A stretch of DNA of 64,000 nt from Candidatus Magasanikiibacteriota bacterium (lineage in GTDB: Bacteria > Patescibacteriota > Patescibacteriia > Magasanikbacterales > UBA922): positions 64,691 through 128,690 of the forward strand of contig JBAYJP010000002.1 of the NCBI GenBank assembly GCA_041665025.1, given 5' to 3'. The stretch's first letter is position 1. Each line of letters starts with the position of its first letter. Below the pieces are notes generated by a model that was given only the letters and a program-made list of their open reading frames with translations, made no database searches and had not been told where the DNA came from. Made by a program: the position numbers and the translations under genes. This document shows, piece after piece, positions 37,033-62,858 of the stretch.

Positions 37033-37107
37033 TACACGTACCACGTATCACATAACACATATCAAATATTTAAATTGATACGTGATACGTGCTATGTGAT
37101 ACGTGAA
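37033..37107. repeat. ACGTG-family heptamer palindrome (R6)
   Basis: 'acacgtaccacgtatcacataacacatatcaaatatttaaattgatacgtgatacgtgctatgtgatacgtg', ending 3 nt before the recombinase ATG. Confidence 0.8.
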
Positions 37108-37110
37108 CAT

Positions 37111-38136
37111 ATGGCGACAACTCTCAAACAATATCTCACCGAATTTCTTGAACACCTGGAAATCGAAAAAAACCGCAGCCCAAAAACACTGCAGAATTAT
37201 GATTTTTATTTAAGACGTTTTATAGAATGGTTTGGAGACAAACATCCTGAAAAAATAACTGGCGAGGATGTACGTCAATACCGACTTTGGCTCAATAGGC
37301 TCTGCGATGTACACGGAGAACCACTGAAAAAAAATACCCAAAACTACCATCTCATTGCTTTGCGTTCATTTCTGAAATACTTGGCCAAACGCGATGTAAA
37401 GACACTGCCCCCTGAAAAAATAGAACTAATGAAAATGCCTGATCGTGAGGTTAGTTTTCTTGAAGGTGGGGATTTGAATCGTATTCTAGAAGCGCCGTTC
37501 AAACACTTGAGCACGAAAGCACTTGCCTGCCCGCCAAATGGGAGGGAGCACGAAAGCACAAAGACAAAAATACCGCCCACACTCCTCATAGCCCATCGCG
37601 ACAAAGCGATTTTGGAGTTGTTATTCTCGACGGGTTTGCGCGTGTCTGAGCTCGCCAAGTTAAAAAAGGAAGATGTAAATTTAAACCGAGACGAATTTAC
37701 CGTAACGGGAAAAGGACGAAAAACTCGTGTTGTATTTTTATCAGAACAAGCGCGATATGCTATAAAAAAATATATAGAAATCCGCGGAGATCTAAATCCG
37801 TATTTATTTATTTCTCACGACAAACGCACGGGACCTAACAAAAAAATAAAAAATGGTAAGATGGCTGATGACGACCAACCATTGACACCTCGTTCTATTG
37901 AACGGACGGTGCAAAAATATGCCCGAGAAGCAGGGATTACCAAGCATGTCTCGCCACATACCCTGCGACACTCTTTTGCTACAGATTTACTCCAAAATGG
38001 AGCCGACATCCGCAGTGTACAAGCAATGCTTGGACACTCGTCTATTACGACAACTCAAATTTATACGCATATAACAGACAAAGAACTTAGAAATATCCAT
38101 AAGAAATTCCATGGCAAACACAGAGCTGATGATTGA
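37111..38136 (+). CDS. site-specific tyrosine recombinase (XerC/XerD / phage-integrase family)
   Basis: N-terminal SAM-like domain ('LEHLEIEKNRSPKTLQNYDFYLRRF') and catalytic 'HTLRHSFATDLLQNGADIRSVQAMLGHSSITTTQIYTHI' (R..H..R..Y). Start at MATTLKQ; the ORF-track prefix is repeat read-through. Confidence 0.8.
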   Translation: MATTLKQYLTEFLEHLEIEKNRSPKTLQNYDFYLRRFIEWFGDKHPEKITGEDVRQYRLWLNRLCDVHGEPLKKNTQNYHLIALRSFLKYLAKRDVKTLPPEKIELMKMPDREVSFLEGGDLNRILEAPFKHLSTKALACPPNGREHESTKTKIPPTLLIAHRDKAILELLFSTGLRVSELAKLKKEDVNLNRDEFTVTGKGRKTRVVFLSEQARYAIKKYIEIRGDLNPYLFISHDKRTGPNKKIKNGKMADDDQPLTPRSIERTVQKYAREAGITKHVSPHTLRHSFATDLLQNGADIRSVQAMLGHSSITTTQIYTHITDKELRNIHKKFHGKHRADD

Positions 38137-38161
38137 CAATTGGGCTAAAAAGCGATAAAAT
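38133..38161 (+). promoter_or_regulatory. sigma70-like promoter for tRNA-Arg
   Basis: TTGACA-17nt-TAAAAT; the -35 lies inside the last codons of the recombinase gene. Confidence 0.5.
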
Positions 38162-38181
38162 TTGCATATTAATTATGCCTT

Positions 38182-38253
38182 GCGCTCGTAGTTCAATGGA
38201 TAGAATAGAAGCCTTCTAAGCTTTAGATCAAGGTTCGATTCCTTGCGGGCGCA
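38182..38253 (+). tRNA. tRNA-Arg (anticodon TCT)
   Basis: Cloverleaf: acceptor GCGCTCG/CGGGCGC, D-arm GTTC..GAAT, anticodon stem GAAGC/GCTTT with loop CTTCTAA, T-arm CAAGG-TTCGATT-CCTTG. No encoded CCA. Confidence 0.8.
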
Positions 38254-38340
38254 CTATAATATGGTATGATAGAATAGTTGTTTCCTAATTAAGTAATAAT
38301 TTTATAAAAAATAGCAACCTTTATTCTTAACCTTTCACAT

Positions 38341-39078: not shown

Positions 39079-39132
39079 ACACAGAATACACGCCTGCCTG
39101 CCGGCAGACAGGAATTAAAATGAATTAGACTG

Positions 39133-39162
39133 AAATCCGCCTACTGCAAAGGCGGATTTTTA
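39133..39162 (+). terminator. intrinsic terminator
   Basis: 'AAATCCGCCtactgcaaaGGCGGATTTTT' after the SPFH gene, preceded by palindrome 'cctgcctgccggcagacagg'. Confidence 0.6.
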
Positions 39163-39196
39163 CTTGTGAAATCTTTTAAAATCAGTGTAATCAATG

Positions 39197-39225
39197 TTGA
39201 CAAATGTGAAATATCCCAGTATACT
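39197..39225 (+). promoter_or_regulatory. sigma70 promoter for tRNA-His
   Basis: Consensus TTGACA-17nt-TATACT about 45 nt upstream of the tRNA. Confidence 0.6.
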
Positions 39226-39270
39226 TTCTCCGTTAAAAGTCAGACTCAAGGTAAATTTTAAAAAAAGAGG

Positions 39271-39343: not shown

Positions 39344-39491
39344 GTTAGCCACCCCCAAGGGAATCTCCCGACAAAAAGCCTACAATAGGCTTTTTTATTT
39401 ACCTGTTTAAAAGTGATATAATGAGGGTACCAATCATTTTTGCATAGGGAATTCACTCTGTTTATTGCTCCCCTATGCCAAAATTTAATAT

Positions 39492-40607
39492 ATGAAAACG
39501 ACAAAACTTCTTATTATTTCTTTATCAGCAGGCTCTGGACATGTACAAGCGGCCAAAGCAATAAAAGAAACAGCAGATACCTACCCACAGGTAGTCTGTG
39601 AACATATCGACATGGCCGGCTATATCACAAGAGTATTCAAGGCATCGGCTATCTCCTCATACCACGTTATTATTGAACATTTTCCAAAACTTTGGAAATC
39701 ATTTTTTGATATTACAGACAATGAAAATTTTCTCAATGCATATTACACCATTACAAAATATTTAAAACTTATTAATTCTTTCCCTCTATACAAAAAAATA
39801 CAACAATTTAATCCTGACTATATCTTGTGCTCTCATTTCCTGGCCGCTGATGTACTACTCAACACAACATCGAGCAACAGACCCCGTGTACCTGTATCTG
39901 TTCTCGTGACAGATTATGGACTCCACCCCTTGTGGGCAGTATCGGGCGTGTCGCATTATTTTGTAGCAACCTCGTCAATCGAACAAACCCTAAAAAAAAA
40001 CCACCACGTACCAAAATCTCATATCACCGTAAGTGGTATTCCTGTCTACCGCTCATTTTATGAAAATTCCAAAAAAGAAGATCTACGGACCAGATATCAT
40101 TTACCATTAAAAAACCAGACCATACTCCTACTGTCCGGAGGGCAAGGGTTGATGGAAACTGATACATTGGCAAAAAAAATATTTTCATATTCAAAACCTG
40201 TTACCCTTATTGCCATCGCAGGAAAAAATGAAGAACTGCGGCAAAATCTGCTTAGACTTTCTGCACCTCCCCATATCAATTACCGTGTCATTGGATGGAC
40301 ACATGATATGGCGTCATACATAAAGTTGTCTGATGTCGTGATAAGCAAACCCGGCGGATTGACCACAACCGAATGCATGATCTCGGGAGTACCACTTATC
40401 GCAGTTAATCCTATTCCTGGGCAAGAAGAATTTAATGTCGAATTTATACAACAAAAAAACCTTGGCGCGCTTGCCAAGGATAGTGAAAGCCTCTTGAAAT
40501 TATTGCATCATTTTCTTGAAAAGAAAGAGCCTCTCGAGTCCGAAAAAATCCAGCCTGCTTCAGATATAATACTCAAAAAAATTATTACCGCACCCACGGC
40601 GCATTGA
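39492..40607 (+). CDS. GT28-family glycosyltransferase (MGDG synthase / UgtP-like diacylglycerol glycosyltransferase)
   Basis: N-terminal 'LLIISLSAGSGHVQAAKAIKE' and 'VLVTDYGLHPLWAVSGVSHYFVAT', hallmarks of the MGDG-synthase/UgtP family. Confidence 0.6.
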   Translation: MKTTKLLIISLSAGSGHVQAAKAIKETADTYPQVVCEHIDMAGYITRVFKASAISSYHVIIEHFPKLWKSFFDITDNENFLNAYYTITKYLKLINSFPLYKKIQQFNPDYILCSHFLAADVLLNTTSSNRPRVPVSVLVTDYGLHPLWAVSGVSHYFVATSSIEQTLKKNHHVPKSHITVSGIPVYRSFYENSKKEDLRTRYHLPLKNQTILLLSGGQGLMETDTLAKKIFSYSKPVTLIAIAGKNEELRQNLLRLSAPPHINYRVIGWTHDMASYIKLSDVVISKPGGLTTTECMISGVPLIAVNPIPGQEEFNVEFIQQKNLGALAKDSESLLKLLHHFLEKKEPLESEKIQPASDIILKKIITAPTAH

Positions 40608-41145
40608 CTTCCGGAGGTGTAGTGCTCTGTTCAAGCGGATCTCGCTGATAGAATTGCTCCTGACTTGGAAGCACATCAAACTCAAAAAATGAACCATAGG
40701 GATTTTCATTTCCTTTTCCATACAAATACCACACAAACCCAGCAATACTATACGAGGTAAGCATAATAAATACGCCCAAAACTCCATAAAATATTATTTG
40801 CTTTCCCTTTTTTATTTTTTCTTCTTCTCCGCTTGAGGTCATGACCAAATATCCTCCGTATATCGTGTACACAGTGGCAAGTGTTCCTACAATACTCAAA
40901 AATATTTTGATTATCTGCGCCACAATCAGACGCGGATCGCGAGGAGAACCCAAATTTGCACCCTGCTCTCCGGCAAATGCGTCCAATTGCCTGAACATAT
41001 CTGAACCTGCGTATGGCACGGTCCCATTTTTTTGTTCATCTGTCCCTTCTGCGTATGTAAATTGGGCAATGAAAAAAATTCCTGTAATTATTCCACTCAG
41101 GAGAATTAGAGATGCTATTTTTTTTCTATGTGTTAGCTTCAACAT
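40585..41145 (-). CDS. VirB2/TrbC-like 'T4SS-pilin' family protein (paralog P1, with C-terminal extension)
   Basis: N-terminal TM, then TM-'IYGGYLVMTSSGEEEKIKKGKQII'-TM core shared by the whole array, plus an extra ~50-aa tail. Confidence 0.6.
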   Translation of the reverse strand: MLKLTHRKKIASLILLSGIITGIFFIAQFTYAEGTDEQKNGTVPYAGSDMFRQLDAFAGEQGANLGSPRDPRLIVAQIIKIFLSIVGTLATVYTIYGGYLVMTSSGEEEKIKKGKQIIFYGVLGVFIMLTSYSIAGFVWYLYGKGNENPYGSFFEFDVLPSQEQFYQRDPLEQSTTPPEVNAPWVR

Positions 41146-41151
41146 AGTATA

Positions 41152-41601
41152 TTACTCAAAAAACTGAGGTTGCGAGGCAGACGGAATAATTCCTGATGCC
41201 TGCGTTATTCTGCTCATCACAAAATTGGTAATACTGTATGCCGACAAAATCACCAAAATCCCTATGACTGCTCCCTGCATGGTTTTGCGTGCTTTGGAAA
41301 TTTTTTCTTCTTCACCATGTGAAGTAATAAACCAATATCCTGAAATAAAAAACAGAAATACAAATACAGTACCAAGCAACCCAAGTCCTATTCGAACAAA
41401 CCGCATGGCTGTCAGACGAGGATCCACCGCTCCCTCTCCATAGCCAGCTTGCAGGGTACCTGCCTGAAGCTGTCGAATTACCTCGTTTGTCGTATCTTCA
41501 TTCACCGACTGGGCAAAAACGTTTGAATACACAGAAAAAATGCCCACAAAACAGATGAGAAAGACAAAGGCCAAGATGTATAATTTTCTATAATATTTCA
41601 T
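41152..41601 (-). CDS. VirB2/TrbC-like 'T4SS-pilin' family protein (P2)
   Basis: Signal/TM N-terminus, core 'FFISGYWFITSHGEEEKISKARKTMQGAVIGILVILSAYSITNFV'. Confidence 0.65.
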   Translation of the reverse strand: MKYYRKLYILAFVFLICFVGIFSVYSNVFAQSVNEDTTNEVIRQLQAGTLQAGYGEGAVDPRLTAMRFVRIGLGLLGTVFVFLFFISGYWFITSHGEEEKISKARKTMQGAVIGILVILSAYSITNFVMSRITQASGIIPSASQPQFFE

Positions 41602-41610
41602 AGCATGCTT

Positions 41611-42021
41611 TTATTCTATACCTGCACCCGGGGCTGTCTGTGGCGTAGTGCCTGCCAATATGCGCGGTACGATAAATGCCGTGATACTATATGCGGCCAA
41701 TACAATGATAAGTCCAATTATCGCCGCTTTGATAATCTCTTTTGATTTGTCTATTTGTGCTTCTTCTCCACGGGCAACCATCCACAAATACCCTCCATAT
41801 ATCATAAGCACGGTAAACAAGACGCCCATGATTGAAAGAGCGATGCTAATAATAGTACCAATATTGGCTGCCAAGGTCGTATCATTTGTCTCAGGATTAA
41901 ACCCGGCTTCAGCTCCGGCGTTTTTTACATAACTATTTATCCCGAAATCAAGGGCAAGAGACATTGAGGGGACTGCAAGCAACACAAGGGCAAAAATAAA
42001 TGTAATTATCTTTTTGAACAT
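41611..42021 (-). CDS. VirB2/TrbC-like 'T4SS-pilin' family protein (P3)
   Basis: Core 'MIYGGYLWMVARGEEAQIDKSKEIIKAAIIGLIIVLAAYSITAFIV'. Confidence 0.7.
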   Translation of the reverse strand: MFKKIITFIFALVLLAVPSMSLALDFGINSYVKNAGAEAGFNPETNDTTLAANIGTIISIALSIMGVLFTVLMIYGGYLWMVARGEEAQIDKSKEIIKAAIIGLIIVLAAYSITAFIVPRILAGTTPQTAPGAGIE

Positions 42022-42029
42022 ACTATGCT

Positions 42030-42140
42030 TAAAGATTAAAAGATTGCAAGATTAAAAGATTGAAAGATTAAAAGATTTTGAAATACTGTAATTTGGTATC
42101 CAATCACAATCTTATAATCTTTCAATCTTTTAGTCTTTCT
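42030..42140. repeat. family-4 heptamer inverted repeat pair ('AAGATTAAAAGATT' / 'AATCTTTCAATCTT'), no gene enclosed
   Basis: 'aaagattaaaagattgcaagattaaaagattgaaagattaaaagatt...aatcacaatcttataatctttcaatcttttagtcttt'. Confidence 0.75.
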
Positions 42141-42205
42141 CTTTTGTATCTATGACCTTAAAACTAAGGACGACGTCTGGAAGATATCACCCCCCATGCA
42201 ACGCG

Positions 42206-42586
42206 CTACGTCACCCCAAACTTACTCGTCACAAATATGGTGATCGCGTAGGCACTCACCGTAATAAACAACCCAATAATGGCCGCATAAATAATATTTC
42301 GTGCGCTTTCAATTTTGCTCTCTTCACCGCGCGCAGTCATCCATAGTACGCCCGCATACACCATAAGTGCCAAAAAGATAATACCTACCAAACTCAAAAC
42401 ACCCTTTATCAATCCGCCTACCAATAATCCAATATCACTTTGTGTAGTACCTGCTTTACCAGCAACAGTGGTCAAATTTGGACCTGAACTCTTTACACCT
42501 TGCGCAACTACAGATGAAACCAATGCCGTACACATGAATACACTGAGTAAGATAACTGAAATTATTTTTTTGAACATACACTTCAA
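42206..42586 (-). CDS. VirB2/TrbC-like 'T4SS-pilin' family protein (P4)
   Basis: Core 'MVYAGVLWMTARGEESKIESARNIIYAAIIGLFITVSAYAITIFV'. Confidence 0.7.
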   Translation of the reverse strand: MKCMFKKIISVILLSVFMCTALVSSVVAQGVKSSGPNLTTVAGKAGTTQSDIGLLVGGLIKGVLSLVGIIFLALMVYAGVLWMTARGEESKIESARNIIYAAIIGLFITVSAYAITIFVTSKFGVT

Positions 42587-42609
42587 TTATTCTATAATAT
42601 TTTTTATTT

Positions 42610-43296
42610 TCAACGATTTTCCTTGCACTGTTCGGCTTCCTGTCCTTCAAAAAATTGCCATGTCCCTTCCCCCTCTGGTCCATATAGACAATCATCTATT
42701 CCTTCTCTGACAGCTTCACCAAAATACTTGCAATCCGCATATGTTGTTATGCGCCATGCCTTAGTTTCAACACCCAAAAGAAGTTCCTCGGAACACGCGC
42801 CTGACTCTCCTCCGCTCGCCTTCACCCAGTCATAACAGCATCCTGTTGGTTCATTGCCTACTTGGCTTGGGTTATCGGTAATCGAAAGACCTCCACCTGC
42901 CTGGTTATCTATAATTCTCTGCTGGACAAATGTGGTAATCGCATACGAACTTACCAAAATAATCATACCTATGGTCGAAGCAATAAGTGTTTTCCGCGCT
43001 TTGTCCACTTTGTCTTCTTCTCCACGCGCAGTCATCCACATAAGACCCGCATATACCATAAGGCCAAAAAATATAATTCCCGCTATACTCAGCGCATATT
43101 TTATTAACGTACCAATGTATGTGCCAACATCGCCCTGGTCAATGCCTGACTTTTGCACTACGGTGCTTAGTGCCGAGTCTGCGTCGCTCAAGGTTTTTTT
43201 GGCATAAATTTTTTGTTGCCCATACCCCAAAACTCCCGTCAACACCAATATTAACATTACAATAATTTTATAACGAAAAAAATACATACTCTCCAT
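42610..43296 (-). CDS. VirB2/TrbC-like 'T4SS-pilin' family protein with Cys-rich C-terminal ectodomain (P5)
   Basis: Core 'MVYAGLMWMTARGEEDKVDKARKTLIASTIGMIILVSSYAITTFV' followed by a ~90-aa Cys-rich tail (CCYDW..C..C..C..C). Confidence 0.65.
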   Translation of the reverse strand: MESMYFFRYKIIVMLILVLTGVLGYGQQKIYAKKTLSDADSALSTVVQKSGIDQGDVGTYIGTLIKYALSIAGIIFFGLMVYAGLMWMTARGEEDKVDKARKTLIASTIGMIILVSSYAITTFVQQRIIDNQAGGGLSITDNPSQVGNEPTGCCYDWVKASGGESGACSEELLLGVETKAWRITTYADCKYFGEAVREGIDDCLYGPEGEGTWQFFEGQEAEQCKENR

Positions 43297-43299
43297 AAT

Positions 43300-44142
43300 T
43301 TAGTTACACTGATCTGTAGCGCCACAAATATCAGTGCCGTCTAGCATACAGGTAGTCCATACTACAATTTCTCCAGGTAGATCACATTCAGGTGGTTTGT
43401 CTGTTACACAATTTGAACCGGCACATGCTATTCTTATTTCTTCTTCGGTTCCTCCAGTAGTAGCCCCTCCTACACAAGCACAATAAGTTGTTCCCTCAGA
43501 TGCAGTACAGAAATCTGGAGCTGTACAAGGAGGAGGAGTACTACCACTTGGTGTACAACATTTATCATCTCCGGGGCATCCTCCTGCCGTAGTCTCAGAA
43601 TAAGCGTCCCATGCCTTACATTTTGTTGCATCGCCCCAATTAGTCGCACCTGCTGCTGTCTGAGATTGGCAAGTAAACGTGACCCAACCTGGTGGTTGAG
43701 TAAACACTGCTTTTAATCCTTCTGTTTTTCCACACAAACTTGCGGTTGGGGTTGTCCCTCCACCACCACCATCGCCCGTACCGCCTACACTCTTAAACAC
43801 AAAATTCGTAATGGCGTATGCTGACATGACGATAATAATACCAATAATCGCGGCAAACACGGTATTCAAAGCTTTTTTTGCTTGTTCTTCATTTCCTCTG
43901 TCTGTCATCCACAATATCCCGCCGTAAATCATGAGTACAAAAAAGACAACCGAGACCATGGATAATGCCGTGCCTATCACATTACCTATAATTTCTGGAA
44001 GATTGCCCTTTTTCAAATTTGCAGCACCTGCGGCAGTGTCTAGGCCATAATTACTATCTTGGGCAAAAACACCAACAGCGGACATAATTCCTACTGAGAT
44101 AATAATTCCCAAAAACAGATAGAGGAATTTTTTGGACAACAT
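43300..44142 (-). CDS. VirB2/TrbC-like 'T4SS-pilin' family protein with Gly linker and Cys-rich tail (P6)
   Basis: Core 'MIYGGILWMTDRGNEEQAKKALNTVFAAIIGIIIVMSAYAITNFV', linker 'GGTGDGGGGGTTPT', 16-Cys C-terminal domain. Confidence 0.65.
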   Translation of the reverse strand: MLSKKFLYLFLGIIISVGIMSAVGVFAQDSNYGLDTAAGAANLKKGNLPEIIGNVIGTALSMVSVVFFVLMIYGGILWMTDRGNEEQAKKALNTVFAAIIGIIIVMSAYAITNFVFKSVGGTGDGGGGGTTPTASLCGKTEGLKAVFTQPPGWVTFTCQSQTAAGATNWGDATKCKAWDAYSETTAGGCPGDDKCCTPSGSTPPPCTAPDFCTASEGTTYCACVGGATTGGTEEEIRIACAGSNCVTDKPPECDLPGEIVVWTTCMLDGTDICGATDQCN

Positions 44143-44149
44143 ATAGTAA

Positions 44150-44200
44150 AATTATTCTAATTGTTCTAATTATACTAATTATTCTAAATAAAACTTAATA
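44150..44200. repeat. 'TAATTAGAATAATT' heptamer repeat arm (family 3)
   Basis: 'aattattctaattgttctaattatactaattattctaaa', inverted partner at 44598..44655; together they bracket the four-helix-bundle gene. Confidence 0.75.
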
Positions 44201-44202
44201 AA

Positions 44203-44592
44203 CTAACTATTTTTATTTTTAACCTTGTGATAAATTGCATTAAATATCAGATGCAATTGGCGAGCTTCATCCCACAAAACTCTAGCTTCATTTTTTAGAT
44301 CTTCATCTCCAAAGCTCACAGCAAGCATTCTCAAAAAATGTTTTACCTCTCGAGTTTCTTTTTTACAAATACCTATTTTATGCACGAAATCTTTAGATGA
44401 TTCTGCATCGTCTGCCTCGCAATAATTCGCCCCTATACTCGTACCTGCCGCAACAAATTGTGGTATCAGCCGCTCTGTCACTTTATTTACTAAAATTTTC
44501 TTAGCAAATTTGACAACATGTTCTCCAAACTTCGCTGTTCTCTCTTCGAGGTCATATTTTCTTAATGTTGTGCCTGTTTCCTCCTTATTCAT
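44203..44592 (-). CDS. four-helix-bundle protein (23S rRNA intervening-sequence protein family)
   Basis: 129 aa. 'LIPQFVAAGTSIGANYCEADDAESSKDFVHKIGICKKETREVKHFLRML' matches the family's conserved 'S.GANI.EA......DF.....IA.KE..E..YWL'-type core. Second copy of the type at 33929. Confidence 0.6.
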   Translation of the reverse strand: MNKEETGTTLRKYDLEERTAKFGEHVVKFAKKILVNKVTERLIPQFVAAGTSIGANYCEADDAESSKDFVHKIGICKKETREVKHFLRMLAVSFGDEDLKNEARVLWDEARQLHLIFNAIYHKVKNKNS

Positions 44593-44597
44593 TCCTT

Positions 44598-44655
44598 AGG
44601 TTAATTAGAACAATTAGTATAATTAGAATAATTTACGTAATTAGGTGAATTCAAA
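44598..44655. repeat. 'TTAGAATAATTAG' heptamer repeat arm (family 3, inverted)
   Basis: 'ttaggttaattagaacaattagtataattagaataatttacgtaattaggtgaattc'. Confidence 0.75.
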
Positions 44656-44662
44656 ATATTTT

Positions 44663-45082
44663 CTACGAACTCCACCCGCTTTGTAACTCTGTTGCATCCA
44701 TGAGATTCTCTAAGACAAAATTTGAAATTGCAAAAGCCATAAGTATAATGACTATACCAATAACGGCCGCAAAAATAATTTTGCGGGCTTCTCCAGCCTT
44801 TTCTTCATTTCCGCCGGCAGTCATCCAGAGGAAACCTGCATAAATAATAAGGACAGTAGCAATAATACCCAATAATCCAAGCGACGCATTGATAATTTTG
44901 GCAGTCAGAATGCGCGGATCGCGAGCACTAAGTCCTGTATCTGCAACACAACCAAGTCCCAATGGATCGGTAGGATCATCACACTCGTCTACCATCTGGG
45001 CAGAAACCAAAAGTGGGCTTTGCAAAAAACCTACAGCTAAAACAAAACAAAGGATAATGAAAGACAATACCTTTTTGGACAT
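44663..45082 (-). CDS. VirB2/TrbC-like 'T4SS-pilin' family protein (P7)
   Basis: Core 'IIYAGFLWMTAGGNEEKAGEARKIIFAAVIGIVIILMAFAISNFV'. Start trimmed to MSKKVLSF because the ORF-track N-terminus is translation of the family-3 repeat. Confidence 0.65.
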   Translation of the reverse strand: MSKKVLSFIILCFVLAVGFLQSPLLVSAQMVDECDDPTDPLGLGCVADTGLSARDPRILTAKIINASLGLLGIIATVLIIYAGFLWMTAGGNEEKAGEARKIIFAAVIGIVIILMAFAISNFVLENLMDATELQSGWSS

Positions 45083-45094
45083 ATGAAAATGAAT

Positions 45095-45200
45095 TATTCT
45101 AATTAACCTAATTGTTCTAATTATTCTAAACAATTTCTAATATGGTTTTTAATTTAGGGGTTTGTTTAGAATAATTAGTATAATTAGAATAATTTTTGTA
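45095..45200. repeat. family-3 heptamer inverted repeat pair
   Basis: 'aattattctaattaacctaattgttctaattattctaaa' ... 'tttagaataattagtataattagaataatt', a ~40-bp-arm hairpin with a 25-nt loop. Confidence 0.8.
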
Positions 45201-45259
45201 TGGATATTCAAAATCTGAGGGCAAGGAGCATTTTTTCCCCTTGCCCTCTATAATCCAGA

Positions 45260-45703
45260 TTATAAAGTATATGTTGTGTCACTAGTCGTACCCGTAGCTC
45301 TACCAAGCTGTATCAAAGCAAACCGAGCAATTGCCCATGCTGCCAAGATTACTGCCATACCAATAATTCCCGAGAAGATCCATTTGCGAGCTTCTCCCAC
45401 TTTTTCTTCATTTCCGCCAGCAGTCATCCATTTGAATCCGCCGATAAGGACAATAACAACTGCGATAATACCGAGCATGCTCAAAGCAATGTTGATAATT
45501 TTGGTCGCAGTAACACGTAAATCTGCCTTTCCTAAGGCAATCCCGGTGCTATCTGCATCTCCGTCTTGAATTACATCAATTCCAAATGGATCGTCTCCAC
45601 TAGCTGCTCCAACAAAAGATGGTGAAAGCACTAAACCAAACACTGCGATTGCAAGTATGGTTAAAACTGTTCTGTATTTTGTCAATTTGTACAATAAGTT
45701 CAT
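45260..45703 (-). CDS. VirB2/TrbC-like 'T4SS-pilin' family protein (P8)
   Basis: Core 'LIGGFKWMTAGGNEEKVGEARKWIFSGIIGMAVILAAWAIARF'. Start set at MNLLYKL, preceded by GGAGGTGA (one of the few SD-like sites). Confidence 0.65.
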   Translation of the reverse strand: MNLLYKLTKYRTVLTILAIAVFGLVLSPSFVGAASGDDPFGIDVIQDGDADSTGIALGKADLRVTATKIINIALSMLGIIAVVIVLIGGFKWMTAGGNEEKVGEARKWIFSGIIGMAVILAAWAIARFALIQLGRATGTTSDTTYTL

Positions 45704-45762
45704 GTGTCTCACCTCCCTTCTAAAAGAAGGATTATTTTTTATTAATCCAATAAATTTATAGT

Positions 45763-46728
45763 TTATTGACTCACAGCAGCGCCTCTTACTGTCTTTTCTG
45801 TTGTCCATTCACAAGTGTCAAATTCAGGAAATCCAGCCCGTGATTGTTCACATTCACCTTGCGTATTAAATTCAACACGCACTTCCCAATTTCCCCTCGA
45901 TTCATTTTGAAAACCACAATAACAATTTTTTATTTGTTCAACGCATTCTTCTCGTATTTCATATTCTGTTCCTGTACAAGGACCCCCACCACCTGGGATA
46001 CATTGATTGTCTATCAAACAAAACGTAGTTTGTTGGACAGGGGCTGTATACCCCACGCCAAGCCCTTTTAAAATTAAATCAATTATAGCATAACTGCTAA
46101 AAATAACAACAATTCCCAACACTGCCCAGGTGATTGCCATGGTGCCTTTTTTTATTTGTTCTGCATTGCCAGCAGAAGTAAGCCACATGAAACCTCCATA
46201 CACGACAACAAGCAGAGTGACAGCCCCCAAAATTCCCATTCCAACTCGTATGGCCCCGCCAAAAACTTCCAAAGCATTATTTGCGTTTACTGGATTTGTA
46301 AGAGACACACAACCAGGGGGAGTACATGGTCCGCCATATTGCTGTATAAGAGAATTTCTCAAAGATTCTGGATCAATCGGACTTCCCGCACTACCTCCAC
46401 CTCCAGCAGCAGCACCATCTCCAGCAGCAGCACCATCTCCAGCAGCAGCAGCACCATCTCCAGCAGCACCACCACCAACCTGTTCAATACAAAGTCCTTC
46501 TTTACATGCTGAACCAGCCACACATTCTATATCTCCTTCCTCTTCACCACAAGACCCGCCTTCAAAAATACATATGCTACCAGTGTCACCATCAACACAG
46601 CTAAAATTTGGTAATGTACAACTTTCATCACTAAGACAAGTCCTGTCTTCAGATCTCACAATTTCTCTATAACTAAAAATTGTTGCGACTGTCATTACTA
46701 TAATCGCTGTTTTCAAAAAAAATTTCAT
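45763..46728 (-). CDS. VirB2/TrbC-like 'T4SS-pilin' family protein with Cys-rich N-domain and Gly/Ala repeat (P9)
   Basis: Core 'VVYGGFMWLTSAGNAEQIKKGTMAITWAVLGIVVIFSSYAI'. N-terminal Cys-rich domain, 'GDGAAAAGDGAAAGDGAAAGGGGS' encoded by a 15-nt tandem DNA repeat, second Cys-rich module C-terminal. Confidence 0.65.
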   Translation of the reverse strand: MKFFLKTAIIVMTVATIFSYREIVRSEDRTCLSDESCTLPNFSCVDGDTGSICIFEGGSCGEEEGDIECVAGSACKEGLCIEQVGGGAAGDGAAAAGDGAAAGDGAAAGGGGSAGSPIDPESLRNSLIQQYGGPCTPPGCVSLTNPVNANNALEVFGGAIRVGMGILGAVTLLVVVYGGFMWLTSAGNAEQIKKGTMAITWAVLGIVVIFSSYAIIDLILKGLGVGYTAPVQQTTFCLIDNQCIPGGGGPCTGTEYEIREECVEQIKNCYCGFQNESRGNWEVRVEFNTQGECEQSRAGFPEFDTCEWTTEKTVRGAAVSQ

Positions 46729-49349: not shown

Positions 49350-49470
49350 TTATTTTAAAAACAATTATTCTAATTAACCTAATTGTTCTAATTATTCTAA
49401 AAATAACTGGCTCTACTTCCCTATTAACTACCTTTTTTTAGATTCAACAATATTTTAGAATAATTAGTAC
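49350..49470. repeat. family-3 heptamer inverted repeat pair
   Basis: 'aattattctaattaacctaattgttctaattattctaaaaa ... ttttagaataattagtacaattaaaataatt'. Confidence 0.8.
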
Positions 49471-49552
49471 AATTAAAATAATTTGGGAACAACAAACTGA
49501 AAACAAATTTCATTATAAAATACACCTTAATTCTTTGCGGTTGATATCCGTA

Positions 49553-50429: not shown

Positions 50430-51281
50430 TTATTTTTTTGAAAAATATAATGCTGTCTTCAACAAACTCTCGGGGGTCCCTGTATCAAAATACTTGCCCT
50501 CATATTCATACGCATACATTGTTTCATTGTGCGCCATCGCGTTCACGGCATCAGCCACCCATATCTCTCCGGCTCTACTCTTTTTTGTTTTTTCCAAATA
50601 AGACCAAATCTTTGGAGTAAAGATGTAGCGCATACCACCCACAATAAAACCTTCGGGTGAAACCTCTTCTATGGAGGGTTTTTCCTTAATGCAGTCTACT
50701 TCAAAAGCATACTTTGATAATTTTGAATTTTGAATTTTGAATTTTGAATTCTTTGTATAAACATTTCCATACTTCGTCATCGCTTGTTTATCTTTCAACC
50801 GCTGTACCCCAATAACTGGCACGCCTGTCGCTTCGAAAACCTCTTTTACTTGTTTTACCGCAGGAATTTTTGAATCGATAATGCTATCACCATCTGAAAA
50901 TGCAAATGGTCTATTGCCACAAAGTTTTTTGGCGCACAACAATGCATGGCCATTACCAAGCGGTTTGTTTTGATACGTATAAAAAAATCTTACCTTTTTT
51001 GTAAGATCAATAAGAGACTGTATGCGATCAAGCTTATTTTGTTTTTTGAGTGTGGCTTCTAATTTTTTATCACGCGTGAAATGATCTTTTATTGCTTGCT
51101 TTGTCGGACTCGTAACCAATATGATATCTCGTATACCGCTCTGCGCCATCTCTTCTACAATATACTGAATAACCGGCTTATCAAGCACAGGCAACATCTC
51201 TTTTGGTACAGCTTTTGTCGCCGGCAAAAAACGGGTTCCAAGCCCTGCGACTGTGATGACTCCCGTACGGACGCTTTGCAT
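50430..51281 (-). CDS. galU: UTP--glucose-1-phosphate uridylyltransferase-like sugar nucleotidyltransferase
   Basis: 'GVITVAGLGTRFLPATKAVPKEMLPVLDKPVIQYIVEE'. Contains an in-frame (ttttgaa)x4 microsatellite at 50712-50750. Confidence 0.75.
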   Translation of the reverse strand: MQSVRTGVITVAGLGTRFLPATKAVPKEMLPVLDKPVIQYIVEEMAQSGIRDIILVTSPTKQAIKDHFTRDKKLEATLKKQNKLDRIQSLIDLTKKVRFFYTYQNKPLGNGHALLCAKKLCGNRPFAFSDGDSIIDSKIPAVKQVKEVFEATGVPVIGVQRLKDKQAMTKYGNVYTKNSKFKIQNSKLSKYAFEVDCIKEKPSIEEVSPEGFIVGGMRYIFTPKIWSYLEKTKKSRAGEIWVADAVNAMAHNETMYAYEYEGKYFDTGTPESLLKTALYFSKK

Positions 51282-53455: not shown

Positions 53456-53456
53456 A

Positions 53457-53486
53457 CTGATACGTGATATGTGATACGTGTTATAT
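53457..53486. repeat. ACGTG-family heptamer array (R7, half site)
   Basis: 'ctgatacgtgatatgtgatacgtgttatat' between two prepilin-like genes. Confidence 0.75.
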
Positions 53487-55860: not shown

Positions 55861-55912
55861 AACACGTAACACATATCACGTAACACATATCAATTGTTTT
55901 GTGTTACGTATG
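55861..55912. repeat. ACGTG-family heptamer palindrome (R8)
   Basis: 'aacacgtaacacatatcacgtaacacatatcaattgttttgtgttacgtatg'. Confidence 0.8.
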
Positions 55913-55941
55913 TTTTTTATTATGTAACAAGTATACCATTT

Positions 55942-56709
55942 TTAATCTACTACTTCTAATTTCTTCGCCCCAACCCATGACAAATAATACGCCTGCCGCA
56001 TTGCGTCGGCAATTGCCTTGCTTTCAATAAGTACAGAATTGTTTTCCACAAAATTCATAAAGACAACTTTGTTGGCATATATGTTGACCTCTATGCCAGG
56101 CCAAAATATATTTCGCGGGACCACAACAGTTTCAGATAATTCTTGTTCATCATGTGGCTTGTTTCGCGTATGCCACACTGATCCTTCGCCGGCAATTCTT
56201 TTTGCATGCATATTCAACTTCACACGATTATTTATATAGTCCTTATCGAGTCCATATTTATCAAAATCAAAATACAAATCTGTATTCCACATCAATATCT
56301 CATCTGGCTTAACTTCGAGTGTATCATCAAACGCTTTTCGTATTGCGCCTTTCCCTTCGTAAAAATATATTTTTGGTTTCGTTTCACTCGTATTGTACAT
56401 GGCTTCAAAACGGGGTAATTCTTTTTCAACCTGCGTCTTCAAATCAGTTATTATGGTCAAAAGTTTTTCTGGAGGGTCAGCGACGAATTTATTTTTCCCT
56501 TGTTCCGTGGTCTTTCCCATCACACCGCGATCAATAAGCGCATTGAGTATGAAATAAACAGTGGTTCTCGGCAATCCTGCTTCATTTGCAAGTTTACTTG
56601 CTGTTGACGGCCCTGATTCTAGAGCAGACAAATACACCTTTGCCTCATTTTTTGAAAATCCTATTTGGGTCAAAAGACGGTCTAACTGCATATTTTTAGA
56701 GTTATACAT
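55942..56709 (-). CDS. TrmB-family transcriptional regulator
   Basis: N-terminal winged-HTH 'LTQIGFSKNEAKVYLSALESGPSTASKLANEAGLPRTTVYFILNALIDRGVM' typical of TrmB, plus C-terminal effector domain. Confidence 0.6.
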   Translation of the reverse strand: MYNSKNMQLDRLLTQIGFSKNEAKVYLSALESGPSTASKLANEAGLPRTTVYFILNALIDRGVMGKTTEQGKNKFVADPPEKLLTIITDLKTQVEKELPRFEAMYNTSETKPKIYFYEGKGAIRKAFDDTLEVKPDEILMWNTDLYFDFDKYGLDKDYINNRVKLNMHAKRIAGEGSVWHTRNKPHDEQELSETVVVPRNIFWPGIEVNIYANKVVFMNFVENNSVLIESKAIADAMRQAYYLSWVGAKKLEVVD

Positions 56710-57268: not shown

Positions 57269-57363
57269 TAAAAATATTTCAATACCTCAATATCAAAATA
57301 TCCCAATATCTATAATCTTTAATCTTGAATCAAAAAACACCACCCTATCCGGATGGTGTTATT

Positions 57364-57393
57364 TATTACGTGATATGTGTTTCGTGCTACGTG
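57364..57393. repeat. ACGTG-family heptamer array (R9)
   Basis: 'tattacgtgatatgtgtttcgtgctacgtg' immediately downstream of rpsR. Confidence 0.75.
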
Positions 57394-57398
57394 ACAAA

Positions 57399-57632: not shown

Positions 57633-57647
57633 ACATTATTCAATAAT

Positions 57648-58088: not shown

Positions 58089-58090
58089 AT

Positions 58091-58180
58091 GACGTAAGTT
58101 AACTAAGTAACTAAGTTATCTAAGTAAAAGAGTAATTGTTAATCTTTCAATCTTGAAATCTTTTAATCTTCAATCTTGGC
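58091..58180. repeat. composite heptamer repeats ('TAAGTTAACTAAG' plus family-4 'AATCTTTCAATCTT')
   Basis: 'taagttaactaagtaactaagttatctaagtaaaag...ttaatctttcaatcttgaaatcttttaatcttcaatctt' fill the rpsF-ssb spacer. Confidence 0.7.
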
Positions 58181-59099: not shown

Positions 59100-59561
59100 C
59101 TATAGCTCAACTGGGCTGCTACCTGTCGCTTGACCCAGAGAACGCAACAAAAAAATCACCATGCTATTTGATAGGAGTATTATAATAAGTCCGATTATTG
59201 CATTGAAGAGAACACGTCGAGCTTTTTTCGTGCGTTCTTCATCTCCTCCCGAAGTCATCCAGAGCAGACCACTATATATTATAAGTAAAACAAGCAAAAT
59301 ACCCAAAAATCCGAGAGCAATATTAATGAGGCGTATGACGATAGTACGCAAGTCAGCTGAACCCAAATTAATAAACTCATCAATACTCCTAATACCAAGC
59401 AAATCATCCAAACCATACGCATCTGACGCTTCAACGGTAGTCGTAGTAACCTGAGCCTCCGTGGTCGAAGTAGCTACGTCTGGTGGCGCCTGTGCAAGTA
59501 CAAAAGTTGCATACCCAGAGAAAAAGGATAGCGTAGTTAGAATATATGCAAAAATTTTCAT
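59100..59561 (-). CDS. VirB2/TrbC-like 'T4SS-pilin' family protein (lone paralog P12)
   Basis: Core 'IIYSGLLWMTSGGDEERTKKARRVLFNAIIGLIIILLSNSMVIFLL'. Confidence 0.65.
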   Translation of the reverse strand: MKIFAYILTTLSFFSGYATFVLAQAPPDVATSTTEAQVTTTTVEASDAYGLDDLLGIRSIDEFINLGSADLRTIVIRLINIALGFLGILLVLLIIYSGLLWMTSGGDEERTKKARRVLFNAIIGLIIILLSNSMVIFLLRSLGQATGSSPVEL

Positions 59562-60387: not shown

Positions 60388-60436
60388 ATAATTGAACCTA
60401 CGGCACGTTGACGAAATTAGTATACCGTAGGTTCAA
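60381..60436. repeat. 14-bp perfect-stem hairpin
   Basis: 'aattgaacctacgg cacgttgacgaaattagtata ccgtaggttcaatt' between the tRNA-Phe 3' exon and the downstream ORF. Confidence 0.7.
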
Positions 60437-60448
60437 TTATACTGCAAG

Positions 60449-60744
60449 TGCCGAGGGCCAGGATTGAACTGGCGACACAAGGATTTTCCTTTTGACTTAT
60501 ATTTCTATAAGGATCGGACTATATCTTCATCCCGATTAAATCGGGAGTTGGGCGCTTATGCATGATTATTGTTGATACTCACACGCTAGTCTCTACACCT
60601 TTTCTGGGAGTCTAATCGCCAGAACTTGGCTCGGGATTGCCTTTTTAATAAGGTTTCCCCGAATTCACCCAAATTTCTCATTCTAAATTACTTTAGAAGG
60701 GACCGAAAACCAGTCCTCTGCTCTACCACTGAGCTACCTCGGCA
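60449..60744 (-). tRNA. tRNA-Phe (anticodon GAA) interrupted by a ~220-nt intron in the anticodon loop
   Basis: Exon 1 (60744->60711) GCCGAGG-TA-GCTCAGTGGTAGAGC-A-GAGGA-CTG. Exon 2 (60487->60449) AAAA-TCCTT-GTGTC-GCCAG-TTCAATC-CTGGC-CCTCGGC-A. Spliced product matches bacterial tRNA-Phe nearly base for base. Confidence 0.75.
60488..60710 (-). ncRNA. group I-like self-splicing intron in tRNA-Phe
   Basis: 5' exon end GGACU can pair with intron 'GGUCC' (P1, U.G at splice site). Internal 'AGACUA'/'GAGACUAGC' and downstream 'UAGUCC' resemble P7 strands. Intron ends in G before exon 2. No ORF inside. Confidence 0.5.
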
Positions 60745-60780
60745 TTTAACGTGGTAAAACAAATTCCTTTAGTCAAGGAA

Positions 60781-60856
60781 TGGTGGACCCGAGGAGATTC
60801 GAACTCCTGACCTCATGCGTGCAAAGCAAGCGCTCTACCAACTAAGCTACGGGCCC
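60781..60856 (-). tRNA. tRNA-Ala (anticodon TGC), CCA encoded
   Basis: GGGCCCG-TA-GCTT..AGAGC-G-CTTGC-TTTGCAC-GCATG-AGGTC-AGGAG-TTCGAAT-CTCCT-CGGGTCC-A-CCA with G3.U70. Confidence 0.85.
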
Positions 60857-60919
60857 TTGTATTTAAAAACGAAAAAAGTATACCAATCTAACTAAAAAAA
60901 GTCAAGGAGTATTATATGA

Positions 60920-60952
60920 CAAAAATCGCCTTTTCAGCGATTTTTGTTTTTC
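60920..60952. terminator. bidirectional intrinsic terminator
   Basis: 'gacAAAAATCGCcttttcaGCGATTTTTgtttt' just downstream of the CPA2 antiporter gene. Confidence 0.6.
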
Positions 60953-60957
60953 CGCTT

Positions 60958-62655
60958 TTACGAATGCCCTGTTGTATACCTCAACTTCATCTCATTTTTT
61001 TGTTCAACTCTCAAATCTTTAAACGTTTTTGAACTCCACGGTTTATGCTTGAGTACATCCACAATCCACTGCCCTCCAAGCAAATGCGGCATCATCACAT
61101 AATCTGCACCAGCTTCGTACAAGTCTTCCAAATAGGTATTGTGATATAAATTTGCAATAATAAGTGGCTTGCTACTCAAGCGACGAACATGTGTAATGAG
61201 TGTTTTCTCATCATCTGGTTCGGGAATGGTTGAGATAATAAGTTTCGCTTTATCAAGTGGCAACCCGTCTAAAAATTCCACATCTGATGCATCACCAAAA
61301 AATGCTGGAATACCTCGACGTTTAAGTTTTTCTACTGATTCTGGATTGTAGTCAACAACAGCAAACGAAATTTTTTGTTCTGCCAATGCTTCGCAGACCT
61401 TCCATCCAATACGATGATACCCAAATACCCACACGGTAAATACCTCCTCCTCGTTAGGCTCTTTTTTCTGTGTTTTATCTTTTCCAAAATAATTGAGCAA
61501 AGGAATTAATTTTTGATACAATTGCTCGTTGTACGTAATCAAATATGACGAGACTACAATCGTGATCAATGCAACAATAGTTAAGACAGCAAGCTCATGG
61601 CCGTGTAAATAACCAAGCTCAGTTCCTTTGAAAACCAAAATAAAACCAAACTCGCTTACTTGCGCCGCAGTAATCCCGGCCAAAAAGGCACTCCGGCGCG
61701 TGTATTTCAATTTGCGCATGACATGATACAAAACAAATGGATCTATAATGAGAACAAACAGTGAAAGTACAAGCCCTGGCGCAAGTGCCTGCCGTACGTC
61801 TCCAAACTGGAGTTCACTACCAAGTACCACGAAGAACAACACAATAAAAAAATCACGCAATGGCCGAATACGGCTACTTATCTCGCTTTGATATACGGTT
61901 GCACCAAGGGAAATGCCCGCGATAATAGCACCAATCTCTATACTAAAACCAACCACATACACGAGGCTTGCAACGCCAAAACACCACGCAATAGTAAAAA
62001 TAAATAATAGTTCTCCCGACCGCGCAATTTTATCCATGATAAAAGGCAAAAGATATTTTGACATAATCACCACAAGACCTACCAGTACAAACCCTTTGCC
62101 AAGCGTCAGAAGCGTGGTCACATACCACGACTCGCCATACGTCTTGCTTGTGTTCAAAAATATCATGATGCCAATTGCAATAATATCCTGAACGAGGAGT
62201 ACACCAATGACATACCGACCATACACGGTCTCCAAATCTTTCTTCTCTGCCAAAAGTTTAATGACAATAATCGTGCTTGAAAATGCTACGGAAATAGAGA
62301 TAAAAAGCGATGAAATAAAACTAAAATGAAATAGTGTCATGAGCACATATCCAAGTCCTGCGGTCACCACGAATTGCAAAAATGTACCAACAAATATCGG
62401 CCTGCCCATTTTCTTTATATGTTCAACATCCAGACTCAGACCAACAATAAACAACAAAAGTACAATACCGAACTGCGCAAACGTATCAAAAAAATTTTCT
62501 GCTCCATGCACAATATCCAAAAAAAGAGGGCCGGCGACAAGACCTGCGACAATATATGCAACTACCAGCGGCTGACGCAACAAACGCATGATACACGCGA
62601 TTGAAACCGTAATGCCGAGTATAACTGAAATTTGAAGAAAAATGTTGTCAGACAT
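60958..62655 (-). CDS. monovalent cation:proton antiporter-2 (CPA2/Kef-type) with C-terminal RCK/TrkA-N domain
   Basis: About 12 TM helices then Rossmann 'VWVFGYHRIGWKVCEALAEQKISFAVVDYNPESVEKLKRRGIPAFFGDASDVEFL'. Confidence 0.8.
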   Translation of the reverse strand: MSDNIFLQISVILGITVSIACIMRLLRQPLVVAYIVAGLVAGPLFLDIVHGAENFFDTFAQFGIVLLLFIVGLSLDVEHIKKMGRPIFVGTFLQFVVTAGLGYVLMTLFHFSFISSLFISISVAFSSTIIVIKLLAEKKDLETVYGRYVIGVLLVQDIIAIGIMIFLNTSKTYGESWYVTTLLTLGKGFVLVGLVVIMSKYLLPFIMDKIARSGELLFIFTIAWCFGVASLVYVVGFSIEIGAIIAGISLGATVYQSEISSRIRPLRDFFIVLFFVVLGSELQFGDVRQALAPGLVLSLFVLIIDPFVLYHVMRKLKYTRRSAFLAGITAAQVSEFGFILVFKGTELGYLHGHELAVLTIVALITIVVSSYLITYNEQLYQKLIPLLNYFGKDKTQKKEPNEEEVFTVWVFGYHRIGWKVCEALAEQKISFAVVDYNPESVEKLKRRGIPAFFGDASDVEFLDGLPLDKAKLIISTIPEPDDEKTLITHVRRLSSKPLIIANLYHNTYLEDLYEAGADYVMMPHLLGGQWIVDVLKHKPWSSKTFKDLRVEQKNEMKLRYTTGHS

Positions 62656-62775
62656 ACTATACGATAAATGCAGAGTGACGAAAATAGTTATAAAGTTGAA
62701 AGTTGTAAAGTTATAAAGTCAATGGAAACATTGATACGTAATGCCTGTCTGCCCAAGCCTAGCACTGACGGACAG

Positions 62776-62858
62776 ATATGTTATATGTTATATGTTATAT
62801 GTTATATGTTATATGTTATGTGATATGTGTTATGTGTTACGTGCTACGTGATACGTTA
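62776..62858. repeat. ACGTG-family heptamer array preceded by (atatgtt)x5 microsatellite (R10)
   Basis: 'atatgttatatgttatatgttatatgttatatgttatgtgatatgtgttatgtgttacgtgctacgtgatacgttatc'. Confidence 0.8.

Follow-up and report, generated by a model that had tools for sequence, protein, structure and literature searches.

The stretch analyzed here (hereafter the window) comprises 64,000 nucleotides of contig JBAYJP010000002.1 from a Candidatus Magasanikbacteria genome. It has a G+C content of 39%, 10% of it is non-coding, and the GyrA that it encodes shares 85% identity with the GyrA of Candidatus Magasanikbacteria UBA11699. Among its genes are tandem ABC-2 permease genes near the left end, gyrA, the genes for isoleucyl-tRNA synthetase (IleRS), a SpoU methylase and a Xer-type recombinase, small pilin-like genes, a gene for a TrmB-like regulator, rpsR and, near the right end, an MgtC/DUF4010 gene. 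Many of the spacers between them hold short tandem arrays of 7- to 9-nt units, usually laid out as two inverted arms. A sequence-only reading of the window had singled out one heptamer at ten sites and taken it for the operator motif of a single TrmB regulon or, alternatively, for an element family akin to repetitive extragenic palindromic (REP) sequences. We find that the heptamer is one of several units built into elements of the same design, that two further elements of this design enclose a gene of one protein family, and that the second of the two proposals is close to the data.

The unit of the heptamer family (family A) is TGnTAyG, or CrTAnCA on the complementary strand, and it occurs in tandem at all ten of the sites named in the sequence-only reading. 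The two-unit pattern TGNTAYGTGNTAYG has 35 matches in the 64 kb, against 0.04 expected from dinucleotide-preserving shuffles (shuffle maximum 1). As measured with Tandem Repeats Finder (TRF), these arrays have 3–7 copies per arm. Inverted arms, said to be frequent, are present at seven of the ten sites, the other three having a single arm. Convergent genes 6 kb upstream of the window have an eleventh site between them, its arms enclosing a terminator (positions 3398–3490 of L203; loci other than the window are given by our L numbers). The CA-type arm comes first in all eight two-armed family A elements, and arm order is constant in every family. It should be noted that arm polarity relative to transcription (CA arm after a stop codon, TG arm before a start codon) is a trivial property of any palindrome, and we set it aside as a signal.

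The arrays are not spread evenly with respect to genes. Hairpin 1 (92–172) lies downstream of an intrinsic terminator (44–64) and 1 nt 5′ of an ABC-2 permease gene (ATG at 174). The same sequence is present at this site in an assembly made independently from another sequencing run (L204), and an assembly artifact is thus excluded; this sole second assembly, which we also used as a check for strain polymorphism, is 100% identical. Hairpin 6 (37033–37106) begins 1 nt past the −10 box of a TTGATT-17-TACAAT promoter (37003–37031) and stops 4 nt short of the ATG (37111). The gene beside the element at 55863–55916 most likely starts at its third ATG, about 55862. As the sequence-only reading had recognized, several predicted N termini are read-through of the repeat, from TTG or GTG starts inside arrays. 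Gene callers over-extend N termini into arrays, and software for finding repeat loci might take the arrays for loci of another kind.

We searched the window with TRF at a threshold of at least 2.9 copies, comparing periods 4–12 with shuffles. Period 7 accounts for 26 arrays, period 8 for nine, period 9 for eight and period 6 for a single one; the remaining periods of the scan have none (shuffles gave about 0.2 per period). At least five unit families are represented: A (TGnTAyG), B (nTTTGAn), C (nAAGATTn, or AAGATTnn), D (AATTAGnnn) and a TTCGAAA type, plus singletons (Table 1). All share one architecture, in which an arm of 3–7 units is followed by a short loop and a reverse-complement arm. 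Of 40 arrays with periods 7–9, 31 are intergenic, in line with the earlier claim that placement is non-random relative to gene boundaries; 18 of the 40 end within 16 nt 5′ of a start codon, typically at 4–9 nt, and the opposite arm begins 0–3 nt after the preceding stop codon. Counting by hand through the listed spacers, we arrive at arrays in about 26 of the roughly 58 that are 25 nt or longer, and this streamlined genome of the candidate phyla radiation (CPR) is an extreme case, with arrays in close to half of such spacers. The AAGTTATA/AACTTTAT octamer unit is also found in L009, L035, L041, and L205.

Table 1. Array elements in the window, by unit family (MFE, minimum free energy; z, z-score of the fold; ORF, open reading frame; SSB, single-stranded-DNA-binding protein; cassettes are elements that enclose a gene)
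Family	Element	Position	Arms and context	Fold or score
A	Hairpin 1	92–172	CA-type arm 92–125, TG-type arm 134–172	MFE −29.6, z −3.0
A	Hairpin 2	1752–1822	Flush between stop of 962–1750 and ATG 1828	MFE −27.3, z −4.95
A	Hairpin 3	3414–3470	Paralogue of hairpin 2, perfect stem of at least 17 bp	MFE −28.4, z −6.2
A	Hairpin 4	5054–5136	First unit includes stop codon TAG	z −5.7
A	Hairpin 5	6170–6273	Left arm overlaps end of ABC ATPase gene	z −4.5
A	Hairpin 6	37033–37106	5′ leader of Xer-type recombinase gene	z −5.8
A	Single arm	53456–53480	Entire 25-nt spacer between two prepilin-like genes	
A	Hairpin 8	55863–55916	Between stop of TrmB-like gene (55942) and start of next gene	Weak fold, z −1.3
A	Single arm	57364–57395	Downstream of S18 gene (rpsR); then minus-strand intrinsic terminator, about 57340–57363	
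A	Long single array	62776–62856	(ATATGTT)x5.5 then (TGnTAyG)x6; abuts stop codon of MgtC/DUF4010 gene	
B	Single arm	8940–8970	Plus strand; 6 nt before ATG 8977	
B	Hairpin	9647–9719	Before 191-aa gene upstream of gyrA	
B	Hairpin	27760–27862	About 80% identical, loop included, to 28547–28649	z −6.0
B	Hairpin	28547–28649	14 nt after promoter TTGACA-17-TACAAT (28504–28532)	z −5.4
B	Arms	35078–35189	Right arm codes last residues and stop codon of SpoU methylase	
C	Arms	29672–29787	Loop holds intrinsic terminator 29702–29724	
C	Hairpin without ORF	42031–42139	9 nt before ATG of pilin-like gene (42021)	MFE −37.7, z −6.8
C	Single arm	58141–58177		
C	Further short arm	57308–57331		
C	Cassette	33900–34348	Arms 33900–33931 and 34318–34348 around IVP1 (33929–34303, minus strand)	Flank score 30
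D	Hairpin without ORF	45092–45196	Arms identical or nearly so to 49363–49485	z −6.7
D	Hairpin without ORF	49363–49485		z −3.6
D	Cassette	44150–44634	Arms 44150–44188 and 44601–44634 around IVP2 (44203–44592, minus strand)	Flank score 24
TACGAAA-type heptamer	Hairpin	26955–27024	Upstream of IleRS gene	MFE −36.9, z −9.4
TAAGTTAAC nonamer	Single arm	58095–58127	6 nt before ATG of SSB gene	
AAGTTATA/AACTTTAT octamer	Array	62686–62719	Upstream of Na+/H+ exchanger gene	

The anatomy of the unit can be read directly from the copies. Over 69 family A units, T1, G2, T4, A5, and G7 are invariant at 90%–100%, position 3 is free (A 26, C 10, G 3, T 30), and position 6 is C (35) or T (32). Families B, C, and D likewise have an invariant core of 5–6 nt and 2–3 free positions. 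Neutral decay would not give a pattern of core and free positions, and a stem with a purely structural role would show compensation at the free positions. The (ATATGTT)n run at 62776–62813 is a G7-to-A variant of the family A unit that has been expanded.

When folded, 12 of 15 spacers give z from −3 to −9.4, with stems of 17–40 bp. In-register complementarity of family A arms is about 0.80, roughly what we estimate by hand from the invariant cores alone. We also considered whether the arms are more complementary than the likeness of their units would make them, and rejected this: in-register values run from 0.72 to 1.00 versus 0.60–0.86 for whole-unit shifts, and the excess comes from choosing the best register. 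Because the best register hardly beats the unit-shifted ones, the arms behave as arrays of one unit that can pair in several registers. An Rfam search (gathering and E-value thresholds) returned no family for the hairpins; the sole hit, a mir-2329 match at 33 bits against a gathering threshold of 90, is a chance hairpin.

Two strong sigma-70-like promoters (28504–28532 and 37003–37031) end just 5′ of hairpins, which would therefore form the 5′ end of the mRNA, and promoter-like sites at 5142–5170 and 6280–6308 begin 5–6 nt past hairpins 4 and 5. Canonical terminators are separate from the arrays (e.g., 7413–7443) and at times lie inside array loops (29702–29724 and the L203 element). The arrays thus fill the room left between functional signals. 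They were also considered as signals themselves and rejected: as intrinsic terminators, the stems are A+U-rich and have no U-tract; as promoters, the family D unit has TAGAAT at a plausible −10 distance, and family A and B units are without a TAnnnT hexamer. A Shine-Dalgarno-like 4-mer is found upstream of six of the 66 starts in the window, which is the background rate and indicates that Shine-Dalgarno sites are not used. Separately, a TATAAT-like box lies just 10–20 nt 5′ of the ATG at many genes (e.g., gyrA, IleRS, 5188, 31520), suggesting that their leaders may be very short or absent.

Comparison with relatives, for which we used 80 gyrA neighborhoods (1.3 Mb in total), shows rapid turnover of the units. 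The family A pattern was not found in these loci, and conservation of the motif in related genomes, which the sequence-only reading had itself made a test of its proposal, is thereby refuted. Arrays of other units with periods 7–9 are plentiful there, at 184 in all; 130 of them lie between genes, and 36 stop within 10 nt of a start codon. In six of ten relatives, the spacer 5′ of the small gene before gyrA has array hairpins of other units. The spacer between the SpoU methylase and exonuclease genes has TTTGAG arms in the window and AAACTTTAT arms in a syntenic relative. A relative shares the promoter GTGTCGTACAAT of the xer leader and, instead of the ACGTG array, has a plain hairpin of 10 bp. 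Orthologous spacers, in other words, keep a hairpin while its unit is replaced. A scan of metagenomes for TGnTAyG arrays turned up at least 120 loci, with G+C contents from 31% to 71% and in some cases with inverted arms; this records occurrence, not enrichment, given our rough estimate that a comparable number would be expected by chance.

Whole elements are copied as well. The two family B hairpins at 27760–27862 and 28547–28649 are copies of each other. Between 174 and 5056, an ABC-2 permease gene pair (263 and 262 aa) is present in three tandem copies with a family A hairpin between each, and the hairpins at 1752–1822 and 3414–3470 were evidently duplicated along with the genes. Perfect or near-perfect arrays of 7–8 nt also occur inside genes, four of them in the IleRS gene (24344–24374, 24532–24560, 24839–24891, and 26281–26309), one in RuvA (13087–13118) and one in an NTP-transferase gene (50719–50750). 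The IleRS alignment shows that intragenic arrays encode lineage-specific loop insertions, and two relatives carry insertions of their own at other IleRS loops. From such cases we infer that the elements grow by slippage.

The two cassettes differ from the other elements in that their arms, octamers around IVP1 and nonamers around IVP2, enclose a gene. Both genes belong to TIGR02436/PF05635, a four-helix-bundle family annotated as “23S rRNA IVS protein” and described as functionally uncharacterized (PMC11270868), and both cassettes are situated between protein-coding genes, not in rRNA. Inverted short-period arrays flank all 19 of the TIGR02436 genes that we examined, although the arms are weak in a few. 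These are the two genes in the window, four from gyrA loci, five from metagenome loci, four found by looking up close homologues, three in other CPR classes and one from X. campestris (L041, L049, L057, L079, L104, L158, L161, L166, L183, L205, L209, and L212–L216, besides the window). A flank-complementarity score of at least 14 is reached by 10 of 18 TIGR02436 genes with 110-nt flanks and by 12 of 18 with 260-nt flanks, as against just eight of 1225 other genes at 110 nt.

The arms vary with the protein. Five proteins of one clade, 62%–83% identical and in five gene contexts, all have near-identical AATTAGnnn nonamer arms, and the members come from Magasanik-, Buchanan-, Doudna-, and Jacksonbacteria. 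IVP1 and a 72% identical syntenic orthologue both have AAGATTnn arms, and distant members have other units. Arm family follows protein clade. The X. campestris homologue splits the accB–accC pair, and its flanks are inverted arrays of GGGAATC, a Xanthomonas repeat that has been analyzed in its own right (PMC4692102); a text search of that paper finds neither “four helix” nor “S23,” and the protein is not mentioned in it. Two of the five metagenome loci with a TIGR02436 gene (L104 and L166) have ACGTG-type arms, both loci having been selected for carrying the motif. For each of the two closest solved relatives, 2GSC and 2RLD, five chains were deposited; with about 4–6 units in an arm of the arrays, this would hint, were each clade to recognize its own unit, at one oligomer per arm. 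We also observed that AATGACCAA (TTGGTCATT on the other strand) is conserved beside the downstream nonamer arm of IVP2-clade cassettes in four genomes (L041, L213, L214, and L215); in L044 there is a tandem array of AATGACC.

Intergenic heptamer repeats were known by 2007 at the latest; they have received little close study and are of unknown function (PMC4692102). Short tandemly repeated repetitive (STRR) sequences of 7 bp form hairpins between cyanobacterial genes (PMC2670836), and Xanthomonas and Nostoc have intergenic heptamers of their own (GGGGAyT, GGGAATC) (PMC4692102). Like the arrays of the window, these are tandem 7-nt units in intergenic positions near the ends of ORFs, often in inverted pairs, and their position is conserved between relatives while length and sequence vary (PMC2670836; PMC4692102). 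The window arrays show the tandem excess, the preference for non-coding sequence near ORF ends and the inverted hairpin pairs of this class; they match neither its published units nor its published hosts (heterocystous cyanobacteria and Xanthomonas), the host here being one of the Patescibacteria, and they differ in that 8- and 9-nt families coexist with the heptamers and that the arrays are flush with both stop and start codons. Neither of the two papers brings TIGR02436 genes into connection with such repeats. The TAACTGA repeats of marine Beggiatoaceae, cyanobacteria, and Bacteroidetes are runs of 2–6 heptamers without a functional theme downstream (MacGregor 2015; PMC4679880). In Beggiatoaceae they too lie a few nucleotides 5′ of starts in a setting where Shine-Dalgarno sites are rare, with some copies inside ORFs (PMC4679880). 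However, they have one dominant unit and one inverted pair in 170 sets, whereas the window has several families and inverted arms are the rule.

Two other classes are similar in part. REP sequences, their paired form (REPINs), and MITEs (miniature inverted-repeat transposable elements) are, like the elements in the part of the host genome that we read, short dispersed intergenic palindromes with whole-element copies and with ORF-less beside gene-bearing copies. REPs are imperfect palindromes of 20–40 bp whose arms, unlike those in the window, are not tandem arrays, and REPs are mobilized by a Y1 transposase, the REP-associated tyrosine transposase (RAYT). No such transposase was seen in the 83 kb of host genome that we read (the window plus adjoining stretches, including the window's annotated ORFs), and target-site duplications were not recognized at the window elements. 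rRNA intervening sequences, which lie inside 16S or 23S rRNA genes and are excised by RNase III, have a long inverted-repeat stem whose loop holds a PF05635 ORF, as in the cassettes, and ORF-less versions coexist with them; intervening sequences with a 23S_rRNA_IVP ORF are reported in CPR rRNA genes (PMC11270868). The cassettes differ in that they lie between protein-coding genes and have arms of tandem 7–9-mers. The arrays would best be grouped with the intergenic heptameric repeats (STRR, GGGAATC, TAACTGA). What is new is that several 7- to 9-nt families are combined, that their inverted arms fit flush against the ends of genes, and that some versions bear an ORF, a TIGR02436 gene, between the arms.

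We give a probability of about 0.5 to the reading that the arrays are one family of genome-wide dispersed palindromic elements, similar to cyanobacterial STRR sequences, and are the ORF-less relatives of the TIGR02436 cassettes. On this reading, elements would arise and grow by replication slippage, with steps of 7–9 nt favored in these genomes, and local duplication would spread whole hairpins. The ORF-less elements would be the counterparts of the cassettes, in which the same inverted arms enclose the gene, and the two forms would parallel the ORF-bearing and ORF-less intervening sequences of rRNA. We infer that the arms pair in transcripts and that the cores are read by a specific factor, and the mechanism could be an RNA stem, a protein-binding array or both. 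Transcribed arms could pair in several registers to give a predicted stem of 17–40 bp at either end (5′ or 3′) of an mRNA or at a junction between cistrons. Such a stem would suit RNase III or a stability element and, in an organism without Shine-Dalgarno sites, could couple the translation of neighboring genes. To judge from the invariant cores, the units may also be read by a sequence-specific factor, for which the cognate four-helix-bundle protein is the leading candidate.

Several results weigh against this reading. A four-helix-bundle gene with family A or B arms was not found in the 83 kb of host genome that we read, and the link of family A to such genes rests on analogy and on L104 and L166. 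A profile search for a cognate gene gave at least 8000 clusters, and among those listed only the known window protein is on the host contig. We know of no 120-residue helical bundle with nucleic-acid sequence specificity. Arrays are few in L002, the closest reference relative (85% identity in GyrA), and over short times the elements are therefore dispensable. Strand-specific selection on RNA was considered and rejected, as neither MFE nor G-U counts show an asymmetry between strands: eight spacers favor the sense strand and six the antisense, with G-U pairs low in number (31 versus 39). The free positions do not covary between arms, and the stem is thus not optimized as a purely structural element would be.

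That last observation bears also on the narrower idea that the arrays are purely structural RNA stem-loops, acting in stability, RNase III processing, termination or coupling, with the tandem appearance a by-product of slippage and no factor involved. The length and stability of the predicted stems, the retention of hairpins at orthologous positions while their sequence is replaced, the flush fit against stop and start codons where Shine-Dalgarno sites are lacking, and the terminators nested in loops (29702–29724; L203 3398–3490) all agree with it, and the same roles were proposed for cyanobacterial STRR hairpins (PMC2670836). We nonetheless regard it as unlikely, because five of the seven unit positions are invariant over 69 units and the free positions form regular, uncompensated mismatches, there is no sense-strand excess of G-U pairs, and the single arms at 8940, 53456, 57364, 58095, and 62776 have no partner. 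Nor would structure alone demand nonamer arms that are near-identical across CPR classes. It is slightly less easy still to believe that the arrays are functionless simple sequence repeats (SSRs), produced by heptamer-preferring slippage and quasi-palindrome template switching wherever selection tolerates them, which in a compact genome would be the short gaps between functional elements, in the manner of the “long SSRs” of Mrazek (2007) as these are summarized in PMC4679880. Unrelated units do occur inside genes as perfect, lineage-specific insertions, turnover between relatives is fast, arrays fill the exact gaps between stop codons, promoters, terminators and start codons, and a mutated unit has expanded at 62776–62813. 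However, neutral decay would not be expected to give position-specific invariance, lineages far apart share the same few unit families, arm sequences stay alike across CPR classes where the proteins are 62%–83% identical, and the association with one protein family is strict.

We find it quite improbable that the arrays are operator sites for a transcription factor, be it the TrmB-like winged-helix protein or a ribbon-helix-helix dimer on each 7- to 9-bp unit. The likening of the units to regulator sites in the sequence-only reading is supported insofar as an invariant core with free spacer positions is what arrays of binding sites have. Conservation is equal in the two orientations, as recognition of double-stranded DNA would require, the arms show no covariation at their free positions, and arrays abut the four promoters and promoter-like sites given above. 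The restriction to periods 7–9 would match packing of one ribbon-helix-helix dimer per unit: the omega repressor of inc18 plasmids binds WATCACW heptads, which are contiguous and in direct and inverted orientation, MetJ binds 8-bp metboxes and ParG binds 8-bp boxes. The core TAnCAC of family A (TAnCACr) resembles the omega heptad, but omega sites belong to three plasmid promoters and the arrays to chromosomal spacers.

The same core, with its TATCAC and GTGATA half-sites, resembles the TrmBL1 site, the Thermococcales glycolytic motif (TGM; TATCAC-N5-GTGATA) (PMC4158304). The TGM geometry is absent from the arrays: a scan of the window with up to two mismatches gave three matches, none in an array, versus 2.95 expected. 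The TrmB-like protein (55942–56709) has solely the N-terminal TrmB winged-helix domain, and one of 11 family A sites adjoins its gene, downstream of the stop codon and not in the promoter. Other sites are in equally poor positions for an operator, namely the 25-nt spacer between co-transcribed genes (53456–53480), the spot after rpsR ahead of a terminator, and the space between convergent genes around a terminator in L203. With at least five families in 64 kb, a very small genome would have to devote at least five factors to them, and the motif is absent from the 80 relatives even though other Patescibacteria loci have TrmB-like genes. A ribbon-helix-helix gene was not identified in the window, where small ORFs were not searched exhaustively. 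Given the geometry, the locations, the other families and the relatives, we do not take the arrays to be an operator set for the neighboring TrmB-like protein, and a single regulon is not supported.

If the arrays are indeed STRR-like relatives of the cassettes, one may go a step further and see the TIGR02436/PF05635 proteins (related to Avd, an accessory protein of diversity-generating retroelements) and short tandem arrays as one widespread two-part system. Each clade would recognize its own 7- to 9-nt unit, the gene would travel between inverted arrays, and ORF-less arrays would be further targets or MITE-like offspring. We hold this extension only tentatively and think it somewhat unlikely. 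If true, it would jointly explain cyanobacterial STRR sequences, the GGGAATC repeats of Xanthomonas and the arrays of the window. In any case, the strict association of arrays with one uncharacterized and very abundant protein family is a concrete lead by which both puzzles become testable.

Some further features of the region deserve mention. About ten small PF18895 (T4SS_pilin) genes lie among the nonamer and octamer hairpins (40585–46728 and 59100–59561, all on the minus strand), and one of them (45763–46728) contains a CAG/CCA-rich coding repeat of 18–21 nt at 46389–46477. Past the right end of the window, L202 1–8300 encodes a large serine recombinase (Resolvase/Recombinase/Zn_ribbon_recom), small ORFs and a 1163-aa LTD/PKD protein. 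Unlike the flanking chromosome, this 8-kb stretch has no 7- to 9-nt arrays, and it may be a recently integrated element. On the minus strand at about 27036–27215, a G+C-rich segment of about 170 nt, without an Rfam match even at an E-value of 0.05, is bounded by a strong sigma-70-like promoter, TTGACT-16-TATAAT (27245–27218), and a terminator-like hairpin (27055–27036); it may be a small non-coding RNA. Finally, the minus strand at 60430–60770 holds a group I intron (Rfam RF00028, 87.9 bits, 60495–60723). ARAGORN did not call a tRNA gene around it, but the flanks read as the 5′ and 3′ halves of a tRNA, and the intron appears to interrupt a tRNA gene.

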